The notes under the pieces are model-generated. The model made no database searches. It was not told where the DNA came from and saw only the letters and a program-made list of their open reading frames with translations. Below, one piece after another: positions 2,928-21,195 of a DNA stretch of 32,944 nt (within the stretch, counting starts at the first letter, position 1; each line of letters starts with the position of its first letter). Both the position numbers and the translations under genes were made by a program. The stretch is from a virus (lineage: Duplodnaviria > Heunggongvirae > Uroviricota > Caudoviricetes): IMG/VR virus record IMGVR_UViG_2648501787_000007; one strand, 5' to 3'.

Positions 2928-3626
2928 TTACTGCGAAAGTTTGTTAATGGAAAGGAAGCCGCCAAAGTTGCCGACGTTATTGCGGAACTTACAACCGCTC
3001 AGGCATTTGCTGCATTTATCCTTCGTGATATCGGACGTTGGCTGGTCATATTCATCCGCGACCGCCGGACCGTGATAACCGCACTCATCGCCGCGATAGG
3101 TCCAGGTGCAGGTGTTGGCCAGCATGATACGTCCCGGAAAAACAGCGCCGTCCGTTTCCGTCGGCGTGGACAGTACAAAAGAGGCACTCACCGCGCTCAG
3201 TTCGCTGCACTGCTCAATGCGCCAGCGGCTGATCACCTCCTGCTCCGGATCGGCGTCACTGTTTCCGTTGACGAAGTTCACCGCATCCAGAAAACGGGCG
3301 TAAACCTTACGCCGGACCACCGTTCCGCCGACCAGACTCTGCAGATCTTCCGCCATCCCGGTGACCATACCGTACAGGTTAGAAACCGTCAGCGTGGGGC
3401 GCGTACTGGTGCCTTTGCCATTCAGTTCAAAACCACTCCCCTGAATGGGATACGGCTGATACTGTCGCCCCTGCCAGGTGACCGGCTCACCTTTTTCGTT
3501 CTGCTCATTACAGAAAAAATAACGTTCTCCACCGACCTCTGTCAGATCGATTTCCCAAAGCACCACGCTGGCCGACTGCTCCGCACGGGTGCATTCATTC
3601 AGTGTTTCCTGCCGGATATCCTGCAT
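2928..3626 (-). CDS. L: Tail tip assembly protein L
   Basis: 232-aa ORF MQDIRQETLNECTRAEQSASVVLWEIDLTEVGGERYFF..., matches lambda L in sequence and length. Confidence 0.95.
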   Translation of the reverse strand: MQDIRQETLNECTRAEQSASVVLWEIDLTEVGGERYFFCNEQNEKGEPVTWQGRQYQPYPIQGSGFELNGKGTSTRPTLTVSNLYGMVTGMAEDLQSLVGGTVVRRKVYARFLDAVNFVNGNSDADPEQEVISRWRIEQCSELSAVSASFVLSTPTETDGAVFPGRIMLANTCTWTYRGDECGYHGPAVADEYDQPTSDITKDKCSKCLSGCKFRNNVGNFGGFLSINKLSQ

Positions 3627-17559: not shown

Positions 17560-17603
17560 GATACTGCAGTTACGATGGGCCTGCCCATGATGACGGAATA
17601 ATA

Positions 17604-17622
17604 AACCGCCAAAAAGGCGGTT
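17604..17622. terminator. Bidirectional intrinsic terminator-like hairpin between convergent ORFs
   Basis: AACCGCC-AAAAA-GGCGGTT inverted repeat flanked by T-rich tracts on both strands, between the ORF ending 17559 (+) and the ORF ending 17624 (-). Confidence 0.45.
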
Positions 17623-17623
17623 A

Positions 17624-17911
17624 TTAAATTTGACCTCTTGACTTTTCTATTTCATAAAGACCCACTCCATCTCCTGCATCAAGCAATGCATAATATTCAG
17701 GGTCTTTAATTCGATCTATCTGATTTGAAATTTCAAGTAACTCATCCTTTAAAGAATCTACTTCAGAGGCTAATCTTTCATTTTCATCCCTCAGCTCCCT
17801 AACTTCTTGCTGTAAAGACAGTAAGCTCTTCCCGGTTGCTGGAAATCGGTTTATCTCATGCCAGATTGCAACTATTAAAGCTAATACCGCAACGGTTAAA
17901 GATGTCATCAT
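17624..17911 (-). CDS. Hypothetical 95-aa protein, N-terminal transmembrane helix plus coiled coil
   Basis: ORF MMTSLTVAVLALIVAIWHEINRFPATGKSLLSLQQEVRELRDENERLASEVDSLKDELLEISNQIDRIK...; hydrophobic N-terminus then heptad-like charged segment. Confidence 0.4.
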   Translation of the reverse strand: MMTSLTVAVLALIVAIWHEINRFPATGKSLLSLQQEVRELRDENERLASEVDSLKDELLEISNQIDRIKDPEYYALLDAGDGVGLYEIEKSRGQI

Positions 17912-18018
17912 TGGTCTCCCTTTACTTTACAGGATATAGCACCATCACAGACACTCTACGAGATCCTGTGATGGTGAGATTAGAATGGAGGCTGTCTATG
18001 GTGATGCACCTGTGGATG

Positions 18019-18558
18019 TTATGATTTTTCGATCATTTTTATTACATTTTTGGCTGGCTTAATTTTCATCGTATCGCCGGTAGCAAGGTGCACAAGCAAC
18101 ATTAATTTGCGAACGTTGCCGCCCTGTTCCCATATCTTATTTTTCATATCTCTGGCCCAGTCGCCATTAGTATCATTTTGAATAAAGAAAAATGCATATT
18201 CGCCATGCTCAATTTTTTTTGGTAAATCGTCACCAAACCCACCCCCCAGAATCTGAAGTAGTGAGTTTTTTGTACCGAACGTCCATGTTACTGAAGTTAT
18301 AGTTGCGGTTTGAATGCCAACATTTGCAATGTTGATCGTAACTCCAAACGTGCTCACATTTTGGCCTGTGATGCCCCCAAGCGATACTGTTCCTCTTAAC
18401 TTCGGTCGAGGTCGACGGTTAGAAATATATAAAGTCAGGCATACTGCCATAAAGGTTGCAATGCCTGAAAACCACGTTCCTACCATTGACCAAAAAGCCC
18501 ATTCTGCTGTATTTCTAGTGGCAACCAATGATTCGTAAGCTATATAATCTGCGTTCAT
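18019..18558 (-). CDS. Hypothetical 179-aa membrane-anchored protein
   Basis: Internal ATG at 18558 preceded by GAGGTG Shine-Dalgarno; MNADYIAYESLVATRNTAEWAFWSMVGTWFSGIATFMAVCLTLYI... with one predicted TM helix; the ORF-track N-terminal extension to 18762 crosses a GC-rich segment that is probably non-coding. Confidence 0.45.
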   Translation of the reverse strand: MNADYIAYESLVATRNTAEWAFWSMVGTWFSGIATFMAVCLTLYISNRRPRPKLRGTVSLGGITGQNVSTFGVTINIANVGIQTATITSVTWTFGTKNSLLQILGGGFGDDLPKKIEHGEYAFFFIQNDTNGDWARDMKNKIWEQGGNVRKLMLLVHLATGDTMKIKPAKNVIKMIEKS

Positions 18559-18876
18559 CTTCACCTCATTTATCGATGAAGTGATTGTAACTAAAAGCAT
18601 TATCGCAAGCACTAAGTGAATGCCAACCACACTCTCGCAGTAGCTGCGCTCATTCCCTTGAGGCCATGTGTCAGGGGTATCTCGTGAATCCCTCACCACT
18701 AACCGGAAGCTGACTGGCGACCAGCCTGGAGTACCGGTGCGCTTCTTCCCGTTACCCCTCACCAGTACGCCCTCAGCTTTTTACCTGAGACTGGCTACCC
18801 GCAACTTTGGGTATTCGGGGCAGCATCATGACTGCTGCATTGGCGCCACTTGCCACGGTCCGTCCGCTTTACTGCT

Positions 18877-19134
18877 TCATAGCTTGATCCTCTCTGCTTC
18901 AATTTTTCGAATATCAGCTTTATCTCGGTTACAGGTCGCCAGCGCGGAAAGCAGACTGACATTCAAATCCAGACTGCCCCCATAGGTCAGCGGATCAGGA
19001 ATAACTGGTTGTGGGGTCTCAGTGGTCAGATTCGCCGGTAGCGGTACCGCTGGAACTGGTACGTAAACTGTCCGCGTACCGGCGCAGCCGTTCAGCTGCA
19101 CGAGCAGGAACAGGACGGGCAGCGCAATCATCAT
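18877..19134 (-). CDS. Rz1: o-spanin (Rz1-like outer-membrane lipoprotein), overlapping the 3' end of Rz in another frame
   Basis: From internal Met: MMIALPVLFLLVQLNGCAGTRTVYVPVPAVPLPANLTTETPQPVIPDP...; signal peptide, Cys lipobox-like site, proline-rich, starts inside Rz. Confidence 0.6.
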   Translation of the reverse strand: MMIALPVLFLLVQLNGCAGTRTVYVPVPAVPLPANLTTETPQPVIPDPLTYGGSLDLNVSLLSALATCNRDKADIRKIEAERIKL

Positions 19135-19411
19135 TCGCAACAGCCGTTTTGATATCTGTCTGGGTTCTCTGTGACTCCAGTGCAATCTGCTGTTTTGCAT
19201 GCTGGCTAGCCTCCAGAACTGTATTGACGATTTGCAGTGATTGCAGGACGTTATTGGTAATGACAGTTGCCGATTTGGCATTTTGTACAGCCTCATCAGC
19301 ACGTTTCTTTTCGTGCTGATATTTGCTGTAGTAGTGGTTGGCAGACCAGATGAAAGAACCGATGACAGTAACGAGAAAAGCAGCGATAACCAGCTTATAG
19401 CTCAACTTCAT
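19019..19411 (-). CDS. Rz: i-spanin (Rz-like), N-terminal TM helix and coiled coil
   Basis: 130-aa ORF MKLSYKLVIAAFLVTVIGSFIWSANHYYSKYQHEKKRADEAVQNAKSATV... immediately downstream of the endolysin. Confidence 0.8.
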   Translation of the reverse strand: MKLSYKLVIAAFLVTVIGSFIWSANHYYSKYQHEKKRADEAVQNAKSATVITNNVLQSLQIVNTVLEASQHAKQQIALESQRTQTDIKTAVANDDCAARPVPARAAERLRRYADSLRTSSSGTATGESDH

Positions 19412-20391: not shown

Positions 20392-21195
20392 ATGACAGAA
20401 AAAGATAACATTGGTAAGTTAATTTGGCATATTGCTTGCGATGAATCTGGCATTGATGGGCAACGTTTCTACGGCTTTGGCAGTCTGTGGATGAAGTACC
20501 AACGCCGTGGGGATTTCTGTCAACTAATCAGAGAACTACGTAGCAAACATGGTTTTTTTGAAGAAATAAAATGGCAAAAAGCCCATTCAAAAAGATACTC
20601 TGAATTTTATCTTGAGCTGATCGACTTATTCTTTAGAGTTCCTTGGCTAGCTTTTCATTGTATCGTGGTTGAAAAATCAATAGTAAACAAGACATTTCAT
20701 AATGGGGATTATGACCTGGCAAGGAGAAAGCACTTCACAAATCTCATTACCACAAAAATTAGCTCTGTAATTTCTGCACACCCTGAAAGAGACAGTTACT
20801 TCAGGATTGAAGTTGATCCTATCGCATCTCGTTATAAAAAGGCCGATGAAGAACTAAATGTTATTGCCAATAACATATTGAATAGAAAATTTGGTCGTAA
20901 AGGGATAATCAGCAGTGTAGTGACAAAAGACTCTAAAGCATCTGAAAACATTCAGCTAGCCGATTTTTTCTTAGGTGCGGTTATGTGCGCATATCAAGGA
21001 AAAGCTTCATCTGAAGCCAAAATAAGAGTATCAAACTATGTTGCTTCATATTTAGGCTGGGATCATTTGCAATATGATACATGGCACACTGAGAGAAAAT
21101 TTAATATCTGGTATTTTTATGATAAAACTCGAGGGCCACGAGATATAGAAACTCAAAATGTTAGCTTAAAGTATCCACTTCCCCAAAAGAAATAG
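20392..21195 (+). CDS. DUF3800-like protein (putative RNase H-fold hydrolase), moron gene antisense to the late leader
   Basis: 267-aa ORF MTEKDNIGKLIWHIACDESGIDGQRFYGFGSL... with N-terminal DESG and C-terminal IQLADFFLGAV motifs recalled as typical of DUF3800; AT-rich; opposite strand to all flanking late genes. Confidence 0.45.
   Translation: MTEKDNIGKLIWHIACDESGIDGQRFYGFGSLWMKYQRRGDFCQLIRELRSKHGFFEEIKWQKAHSKRYSEFYLELIDLFFRVPWLAFHCIVVEKSIVNKTFHNGDYDLARRKHFTNLITTKISSVISAHPERDSYFRIEVDPIASRYKKADEELNVIANNILNRKFGRKGIISSVVTKDSKASENIQLADFFLGAVMCAYQGKASSEAKIRVSNYVASYLGWDHLQYDTWHTERKFNIWYFYDKTRGPRDIETQNVSLKYPLPQKK

Follow-up and report, generated by a model that had tools for sequence, protein, structure and literature searches.

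What is encoded by the GC-rich segment that follows the lysis genes in a lambdoid prophage of Escherichia coli? The segment (18559-18876) lies between the stop codon of Rz1/LysC and the ATG of an open reading frame (ORF) of 179 amino acids (aa), both on the minus strand, within a 32,944-nucleotide (nt) stretch of DNA from that prophage (IMG/VR record IMGVR_UViG_2648501787_000007), here called the window; over the tested stretch the window is identical to strain FHI_NMBU_03 and four other genomes. A sequence-only reading of the window had suggested a structured non-coding RNA, a remnant of a transfer RNA (tRNA)-like or other RNA gene, or a degraded coding remnant. Comparison of aligned relatives shows that the segment encodes a conserved structured non-coding RNA, predicted at ~250 nt on the minus strand, and that this predicted RNA is a member of a large family in temperate lambdoid phages of Enterobacterales. 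The first of the three suggestions has thus passed the test proposed for it, that is, compensatory base changes in homologous prophage regions.

The full RNA extends over 18616-18891 (minus strand, as are all features below unless stated otherwise), where the family covariance model R1 gives 229.1 bits (E = 1.9e-65) over model positions 1-270 of 270, and the core helices span 18626-18867. R1 has 270 positions and 54 base pairs and was built from the window-type alignment, so the window sequence is in its seed and the match in the window holds by construction; it is the single match there, the next best reaching only 6.6 bits. On 100 non-seed phage loci R1 gave exactly one match per locus, at 32-220 bits. 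In the window-type alignment (26 sequences) 91.7% of the cells were paired, compared to 32-38% in slid controls, in which the partner columns were shifted by 1-3; 23 of 59 pairs had changed on both sides (7-12 when slid) and the covariation score was 0.200 (0.03-0.065 when slid). The non-seed alignment (92 distinct sequences) had 90.8% of its cells paired (30-36% when slid), compensatory changes in 35 of 54 pairs (7-20) and a covariation score of 0.182 (0.011-0.026). This second alignment was fitted to R1, which biases it toward the structure, but the conclusion on covariation is safe because the margin over the controls is large and the independent MAFFT alignment of the window type agrees with it. 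G-U pairs are frequent, for example at one pair of helix H5 (AU in 39, UG in 38 and GU in 8), and therefore the structure exists on the minus strand only, as would be expected of RNA, which speaks against duplex DNA. The fold of the single sequence, with a minimum free energy of -94.6 kcal/mol, has a z-score of only -1.07 against dinucleotide shuffles, so the hairpins pointed out by the sequence-only reading could not be verified from one sequence, and since single-sequence thermodynamics is uninformative here, the structure was decided by the comparative evidence.

The ORFs across the segment matched neither a Pfam entry nor a PHROG family, and RefSeq annotates no coding sequence (CDS) across it. 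Most indels among the homologues would shift a reading frame, the length not being a multiple of three in 16 of 19 and 107 of 150 distinct gap runs. The impression that these ORFs are not protein-like was borne out by these results, which also speak against a degraded coding remnant; a frame read through past the stop of the mini-ORF described below was ruled out by the out-of-frame indels. A remnant of an RNA gene did not hold up either, as ARAGORN and Rfam gave nothing and the copy is full-length, with 229 bits against the family model. GC content is 0.56-0.57 at 18600-18899, ~0.55 on the lysis-gene side (18900-19199) and 0.36-0.45 at 17600-18599, the 1 kb downstream on the minus strand. The segment is therefore GC-rich and non-coding as had been described, but it does not sit inside an AT-rich island, AT-rich DNA being found on its downstream side only; because the lysis-gene side is similarly GC-rich, it is the GC-rich edge of the lysis cassette adjoining an AT-rich cargo island.

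Helices and pseudoknot were derived by comparing aligned relatives, and this comparison shows a predicted architecture in which twelve helices surround a multi-helix junction, a purine-rich linker joins the strands of an H-type pseudoknot, and the 3' domain (CUCAAGGG-AUGAGCG-hairpin) is invariant. The RNA opens with hairpin H1 (18855-18867; GCGG-ACGGA-CCGU), which in alignment A4 has 96.6% of its cells paired and compensatory changes in 3/3 pairs. The weakest helix is H2 (18842-18854; 82.5% paired, 2/3 pairs compensatory), which has a GNRA-type loop in most relatives, whereas the window has a longer loop and a pairing register unlike the majority. H3 (18820-18838; GCAGCA-GUCAUGA-UGCUGC, loop consensus GUNRUGA) is 97% paired with all 5/5 pairs compensatory. 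The junction (18756-18819) comprises H7, H4, H5 and H6. H7 (CCC/GGG) joins 18817-18819 with 18756-18758 and shows CG replaced by UA in 21 sequences, the H4 hairpin (18796-18813) is compensatory in 3/4 pairs, H5 (CCAG/CUGG; 18791-18794 with 18762-18765) in 4/4 and the H6 hairpin (18772-18789) in 3/5, and for both H3 and H6 compensatory changes appear in the window-type and non-seed alignments alike. Three of the four inverted repeats noticed in the sequence-only reading are helices of this structure (GCAGCA...TGCTGC is H3, CTCAG-GTAAAAAG-CTGAG is H6 and CCGG...CCGG is H8), while GGTG...CACC falls outside the supported structure. The pseudoknot, which that reading did not contain, pairs the H5 loop with a strand 25 nt downstream (GCGU/GCGC; 18767-18770 with 18739-18742, span 18739-18770) across the A/G-rich linker GGUGAGGGGUAACGGGAAGAA. 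Four of its five pairs have changed on both sides, and it exists in three fully compensated versions, CACAC/GUGUG, UACGC/GCGUA and GCGU/GCGC.

Downstream of the pseudoknot, H8 (CCGG/CCGG with the bulge UACUCC; 18734-18737 paired with 18703-18706) and the H9 hairpin with its conserved loop CGCCA occupy 18703-18737. H8 is 99% paired; within the window-type set G-U wobble is its only variation, in the wider family 2/4 of its pairs are compensatory, and in H9 the central 5 pairs covary (GC/UA, GC/AU, CG/GC). Two regions are swapped within the family, the arm of H5, H6 and the pseudoknot (four versions) and the module between H8 and H11. In the window the latter is type B1 (18664-18702; UUAGUGGUGAGGGAUUCACGAGAUACCCCUGACACAUGG), which is near-invariant in the window subtype and replaced by other modules in most relatives; its sequence GGUGAGGGAUUCACGAGAUACCCCUGAC defines a minority subtype of 33 IMG/VR loci. 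Most members carry module B2, in which two half-sites covary in parallel and not as a hairpin. In the family alignment A3 the half-sites AGCGGC...AGCGAC change jointly to GGGCGGC...GGGCGAC (L066 and L047, for example), and such a parallel change points to a triplex or to binding sites that are repeated rather than to a hairpin. The invariant 3' domain (18626-18662) consists of H11, the linker CGCA and H12. H11 (18649-18662; CUCA-AGGGAA-UGAG) is 99.7% paired with zero covariation, and the H12 hairpin (18626-18644) covaries in the window-type alignment A2 (CG/GC/UA). H3, the CCCGAG junction, GAGCC, GGUNAGGGUUAAU and the GCCA loop of H9 are near-invariant family-wide, and the 3' domain (ACUCAAGGGCAUGAGCG-Y-GGCCAC hairpin) is the most invariant of all; as H11 never covaries, it is the sequence, and not shape alone, that is under selection. 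Two likenesses to known loops came up. The GCCA loop of H9 presumably resembles the loop of type I-E CRISPR repeats. In L004, L010 and similar members H6 has a 5-bp stem and a 7-nt loop (GU-ACG-AA or GU-CCG-AA) close to the anticodon loop of arginine tRNA; an anticodon-loop mimic was rejected, as H6 is variable and absent from most relatives. In the window its loop has 8 nt.

How far does this RNA extend beyond the window? Other prophages and phage mEp237 have kept the segment at 72-93% identity, unannotated throughout. With BLAST, ~18620-18880 was found at 87-93% identity in other E. coli prophages, after Rz1 and with different genes next to it. In mEp237 (73% identity) the RNA comes just past a tR'-like terminator, with the Q antiterminator before it and the first late genes after it. 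The 21-nt invariant core retrieved the 33 IMG/VR loci together with two GTDB species representatives (Citrobacter youngae and Pectobacterium polonicum), while the motif of the 3' domain, which is common to the diverged copy in Klebsiella phage RothC, found at least 120 IMG/VR loci, with 115 unique versions among the matches listed; the window subtype is therefore a minority of a far larger family, which the sequence-only reading had not foreseen. A second pattern searched against viral contigs (CCGGTACTCCAG...CGGTTAG) added no new loci. A BLAST search with a majority-type member had matches in 131 of 5426 complete E. coli genomes (~2%), compared to 32 for the window type, and the 131 matches are unannotated except for two rows overlapped by a hypothetical-protein CDS. 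Named carriers are mEp213, mEp237, vB_EcoS-733R5, two Stx2c-converting phages, Hafnia phage yong1 and Providencia phage PSTCR7lys, and plasmid records add Pantoea, Rahnella, Yersinia, Erwinia, Lelliottia, Enterobacter and Klebsiella, so that the family occurs in at least 12 genera of Enterobacterales. Decayed partial copies, consisting of the first ~95 nt with the mini-ORF, are present after Rz1 in prophages that form a related group, L040 (2500-2600) and L041 (E. coli AR_0061, ET358 and ~12 other genomes). In RothC (PP934563.1; 2456-2792 of our extract) the RNA is flanked by Q on one side and a pair of tRNA genes on the other (annotated as Ile and Arg, the first called Met by ARAGORN), and two hypothetical CDSs (XDI99236.1 and XDI99235.1) are annotated on the strand opposite to it, both probably spurious.

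The 5' edge of the RNA has a feature of its own that had also gone unnoticed, a ribosome-binding site (RBS) and a mini-ORF within the last codons of Rz1. In the window a Shine-Dalgarno (SD)-like GAGAGGA (18888-18894), inside these codons, stands 7 nt upstream of ATG AAG CAG TAA (M-K-Q-stop; 18869-18880), whose ATG overlaps the Rz1 stop as ATGA and whose stop ends 1 nt before H1. Across the family the layout is GGAG or GAGG, a spacer of ~8 nt, a start codon, 0-4 sense codons, a stop and then H1. In the model alignment it was present in 63 of 81 unique copies (~78%), compared to 24 of 1620 random positions (1.5%), and a separate count found it in 101 of 125 unique copies. The stop lies 1-8 nt before the first H1 pair, and only 1-2 nt before it in 46 of the 63. 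Start codons interchange (ATG, sometimes GTG or TTG) and the peptide is not conserved (MKH, MKQ, MHQ, M, ML, MK and others). The mini-ORF is absent where the RNA begins ~20 nt after a lambda-like PL start (L014, L017, L024 and L034). Judging from its usual footprint size, a ribosome sitting at the stop of the mini-ORF would have to cover the 5' strand of H1.

The surroundings of the RNA are diverse. Over ~110 unique loci the nearest same-strand proteins form 48 upstream clusters, among them Q-type antiterminators, CI-type repressors (in PL leaders) and Rz/Rz1, and 65 downstream clusters, with assorted small cargo genes, holins and N-like proteins; the downstream gene begins at -5 to 457 nt, and some lie on the other strand. 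A partner protein gene was rejected on account of this diversity. Three sites recur, all of them classic cargo insertion sites of lambdoid phages: the PL/N leader (L014-L034, a Stx2c phage and mEp213), the position after Q and tR' (mEp237 and L042) and the position after the lysis genes (the window and vB_EcoS-733R5). Leader copies precede nutL, or in the Stx2c phage lie between nutL and N, the nutL-like boxA and boxB having been recognised by eye. The comparison shows that most copies are without a promoter of their own and lie in sense orientation within lytic operons. The RNA of the window would accordingly be part of the Q-dependent late transcript, directly after Rz1.

Several individual loci deserve mention. 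In the PL operon of phage mEp213 (NC_019720.1, 30879-32636) there are two antiterminator genes of the N type, gp51 and gp47, and the RNA is directly upstream of the second. In L017 and L034 a 16-17 nt PL-leader hairpin, ACTCACCAGGACGGTGA, is found on both sides of the RNA, the upstream copy replacing H3, which looks like an insertion footprint or a recombination joint. In the Stx2c phage Stx2_EH1904 an ALIL pseudoknot (Rfam RF01497, 120 bits; 3262-3378 of our extract) marks an IS3-family element just downstream of N.

Classification of the 3' flanks was done over 113 unique flanks. The GAUAAUG motif of H13 follows in 26, with a long covarying hairpin folded in 10, and the motif GCUUUGGGGUG, which opens the lambda N-leader hairpin, in 23 (its closing strand was checked in L053 only); an intrinsic terminator follows in 15, nutL in 3 and nothing recognisable in 46. 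The lambda N leader contains nutL and a long RNase III hairpin, and the 23 copies stand immediately upstream of this same hairpin. Lambda itself has only ~20 nt at that leader position, and the RNA is inserted into this leader without being part of the canonical nut/RNase III apparatus. In the window a partial H13 with GAUAAUGC and a U-run (GCAUUCACUUAGUGCUUGCGAUAAUGCUUUUAGUU) lies at 18589-18623, followed by UUUUAGUU. Overlapping this degenerate H13 is a sigma-70-like site (18599-18626; TTGGCA-16-TGcGATAAT, 10/12 matches with an extended -10). Such sites were counted at chance level; the site may drive the 179-aa ORF and give lysogenic expression, or GAUAAU may be merely a conserved RNA motif.

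In the window the late genes follow each other on the minus strand as Q, holin, GH24 lysozyme, Rz, Rz1/LysC, the segment, the 179-aa ORF, a 95-aa ORF and Nu1/terminase. The o-spanin gene Rz1/LysC (18877-19200; Pfam LysC, E = 5e-17), which flanks the RNA on the 5' side, is embedded in Rz (19019-19411). On the 3' side is the ORF of the 179-aa predicted membrane protein (18019-18558), for which no family assignment was found and which has its own RBS (GAGGUGAAG AUG; 18556-18567), and the second ORF downstream encodes a 95-aa predicted coiled-coil protein (17624-17911). Neither of these ORFs matched Pfam, and their PHROG matches were weak and to function-unknown entries. The gene of the 179-aa protein is not kept beside the RNA in other loci; a distant relative of the protein is located after the RNA in L025. 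Between Q and holin, on the plus strand, lies a DUF3800 gene (20392-21195; Pfam E = 1.3e-10, PADLOC candidate PDC-M04A with E = 7.8e-35), which is probably prophage-borne defence cargo at the after-Q hot spot. We rejected a DUF3800-associated RNA motif, as this gene is 1.5 kb away on the other strand, the DUF3800 motifs of Rfam did not match, and the individually inspected relatives have no DUF3800 neighbour.

Is the RNA a known one? The Rfam covariance search that had been proposed for the segment matched none of the 4227 models of Rfam 15 at the gathering threshold across the whole window, the models covered including riboswitches, ribozymes, group I introns, 6S, Y RNA, GOLLD, ROOL, HEARO, C4, the DUF3800 motifs and prophage small RNAs. 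With E up to 10 the segment gave chance-level matches only (E above 1.9, to eukaryotic snoRNA and miRNA models), and 11 diverse members searched with E up to 5 gave zero matches at the RNA. ARAGORN found no tRNA or transfer-messenger RNA (tmRNA) genes in the window, and an association with tRNAs was rejected as these occur within 2.5 kb in only 4 of 152 loci, never overlapping the RNA. Mimicry of ribosomal RNA, proposed by eye for the 790-loop and 910 regions of 16S, was rejected, the best match of nhmmer and blastn against the rrn operon being a 12-nt antisense stretch (E = 0.13). An antisense or sponge of a host stable RNA was likewise rejected, as the invariant segments had z-scores of -2.0 to +2.1 against shuffles for 16S, 23S, 5S, tmRNA, M1, 4.5S and 6S. 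A group I intron does not fit, Rfam giving no match and the helix order being unlike P3-P8-P7, and an intron in a coding gene is rejected because what follows the RNA is a terminator or a gene that has its own RBS and is initiated independently. In the literature available as full text we found no description of the RNA, although most subscription journals were not covered and an earlier account is therefore possible; the 224-motif paper does not mention it. As far as the sequence searches go, the RNA family appears new to Rfam and to genome annotation, and no published description was found in the searchable literature.

Some known systems are nevertheless close enough to be compared. The put sites of HK022 (putL and putR) are also structured RNAs in lambdoid lytic operons that do not need an adjacent protein gene, and some members of the family, like putL, start within ~20 nt of a lambda-like PL start. 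However, put is ~70 nt with two stem-loops, whereas the RNA of the family is ~250 nt with twelve helices and a pseudoknot, and the latter co-occurs with N/nut and Q, is preceded by the predicted mini-ORF and is found also after lysis genes. We therefore rejected an identification with put, to which size and fold do not correspond; BLAST gave no similarity to HK022 in the phage collection. GOLLD and ROOL are likewise orphan, strongly covarying, co-transcribed phage-cargo RNAs with no protein partner gene nearby and sometimes beside tRNAs, as the RNA is in RothC. They are roughly 580-800 nt, as opposed to ~250 nt here. The present RNA differs from them further in that their Rfam models do not match it, tRNA adjacency is rare, it has a mini-ORF, and it occurs, as far as seen, in lambdoid phages of Enterobacterales. 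With the tRNA cargo of phages at the Q-to-lysis hot spot the family shares insertion sites, read-through from phage promoters and independence of neighbours, but it is neither tRNA nor tmRNA, has no acceptor or CCA features and is of unrelated structure.

What could the RNA do? The reading we prefer, tentatively and with slightly less than an even chance in our estimate, is that it is an autonomous RNA cargo of the lytic phase, transcribed by polymerase that reads on from PL or pR', bounded at its 3' end and binding a conserved host factor, with a ribosome on the mini-ORF insulating its 5' edge. The RNA would then be cargo complete in itself, comparable to the tRNAs of phages, and would not regulate its neighbours, of which it is independent because they form 48 upstream and 65 downstream clusters at three different types of site. 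It would be made only in lytic growth, and its 3' end would be set by a terminator or a long processable hairpin. Through its 3' domain, which is invariant and largely without covariation, the RNA would bind a conserved host macromolecule, most likely one that belongs to the machinery of translation or of RNA decay. A ribosome on the mini-ORF would prevent the upstream messenger RNA (mRNA) from disturbing the folding of the RNA and would shield its 5' edge from 5'-end-dependent scanning by RNase E. The lack of the mini-ORF in copies at the PL start could be explained in the same way, because shielding would be unneeded at the 5' end of a transcript.

Several points weigh against this. That the RNA acts in trans is something we only infer, and no partner was identified, the complementarity to the seven host stable RNAs being within the range of shuffled controls. 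A recognisable 3' end-forming element was not found in 46 of the 113 copies. The RNA of the Stx2c phage, although in the PL leader and downstream of nutL, still has the mini-ORF, and insulation or protection by the mini-ORF may be one of several possible readings of its position. In addition, positions at the start of operons (the PL leader and the late leader) are just as compatible with an effect in cis on the polymerase that transcribes the RNA.

Such a cis action is the best of the rival explanations, and we regard it as possible although clearly less probable than autonomous cargo. The RNA would act on the elongation complex or the long lytic mRNA itself, by antitermination or anti-pausing as in HK022 put, by exclusion of Rho, or as a stabiliser against decay. 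It would explain why every copy is in sense orientation within a long lytic operon, why many are at operon starts, some near +1 of a lambda-like PL as putL is, and why many come right after tR' (an upstream terminator was found for 33 of 119 copies, compared to 16% of control windows) and others before structural genes; the terminators directly after 15 of the 113 copies also agree with it. However, the same operons are already served in these phages by N with nut, or by Q. Compared to put, the RNA is three times as large, folds differently and has zero sequence similarity, and put has no mini-ORF beside its polymerase-binding RNA. The position relative to promoters and terminators is variable as well, with copies on either side of nutL and in mid-operon in mEp213.

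The mini-ORF allows another reading, in which the RNA would be of a new class and act jointly with the ribosome that it recruits. The mini-ORF would bring a terminating ribosome to the pseudoknotted RNA, whose invariant 3' domain would capture or modify either this ribosome or a factor of translation or RNA decay that accompanies it. We consider this rather unlikely. If it is true, the RNA would be a device of the lytic cycle that reprograms or protects host translation, for example against translation-targeting defence.

Quite improbable is that the RNA, as a self-cleaving ribozyme or a dedicated processing signal, has the polycistronic lytic transcript cut where it lies. In its size, its invariant core and a fold rich in junctions and with a pseudoknot it has what is typical of ribozymes, small ribozymes are abundant in phage genomes, and the RNA is placed between functional blocks of operons, but the ribozyme models of Rfam matched neither the window (E up to 10) nor the 11 members (E up to 5), no cleavage site is marked, and RNA ends are already supplied by the flanking terminators or long hairpins.

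A leader resembling a riboswitch or sensing ribosomes, which would control the downstream gene through a ligand or the state of translation, is very unlikely. Conserved unpaired nucleotides and covarying stems resemble an aptamer, a mini-ORF beside a structure recalls attenuators, and some copies have a terminator or an RBS within 50-70 nt. Against this, the 113 loci have 65 unrelated clusters downstream, at the variable distances given above and in some cases on the other strand, and terminators follow only 15 copies, which is near background (21 of 119 downstream flanks compared to 60 of 374 control windows in a looser scan). A polymerase modified by Q or N would ignore terminators, and known riboswitch models did not match.

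We give an equally small chance to the mini-ORF being the active part, a minigene like those of lambda bar, with abortive translation that sequesters peptidyl-tRNA or ribosomes while the RNA only stabilises the transcript or sets the context of the stop. The bar minigenes are two-codon ORFs in the PL operon and provide the precedent, and the mini-ORF shares with them a strong SD and an ORF of 1-3 sense codons; its RBS has optimal spacing, and its stop is right before a structure that needs unwinding. Unlike in bar, it keeps a fixed position relative to a large conserved RNA, whose H1 begins 1-2 nt after the stop. Copies at the PL start retain the whole RNA without the mini-ORF, conservation over 270 model positions is far more than a stabiliser needs, and the last sense codon varies (His, Gln, Lys, Leu or none), so that no particular tRNA is targeted. 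That the segment is functionless, whether as what is left of a decaying gene for protein or RNA, as a scar of recombination or as a site at the level of DNA, would suit a single-sequence fold no stabler than shuffles, the decayed partial copies in other prophages and the duplication flanking two copies, but it is hardly credible with 35 of 54 pairs compensatory across 92 distinct sequences, strand-specific tolerance of G-U, at least 12 genera and out-of-frame indels.

The covariance model R1 can be used for annotation, where the family accounts for a recurrent "non-coding GC-rich" stretch and removes spurious hypothetical CDSs, such as those in RothC. As mEp213 and mEp237 grow on E. coli K-12, the function of the RNA is directly testable. 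Although lambdoid phages are among the genetic systems studied most closely, the N leader and the stretches after Q and tR' and after Rz/Rz1, which are the control regions known best in them, contain this RNA without annotation, and the covariation, the invariant domain and the locked mini-ORF point to a specific function in lytic growth that is missing from models of lambda-type development.

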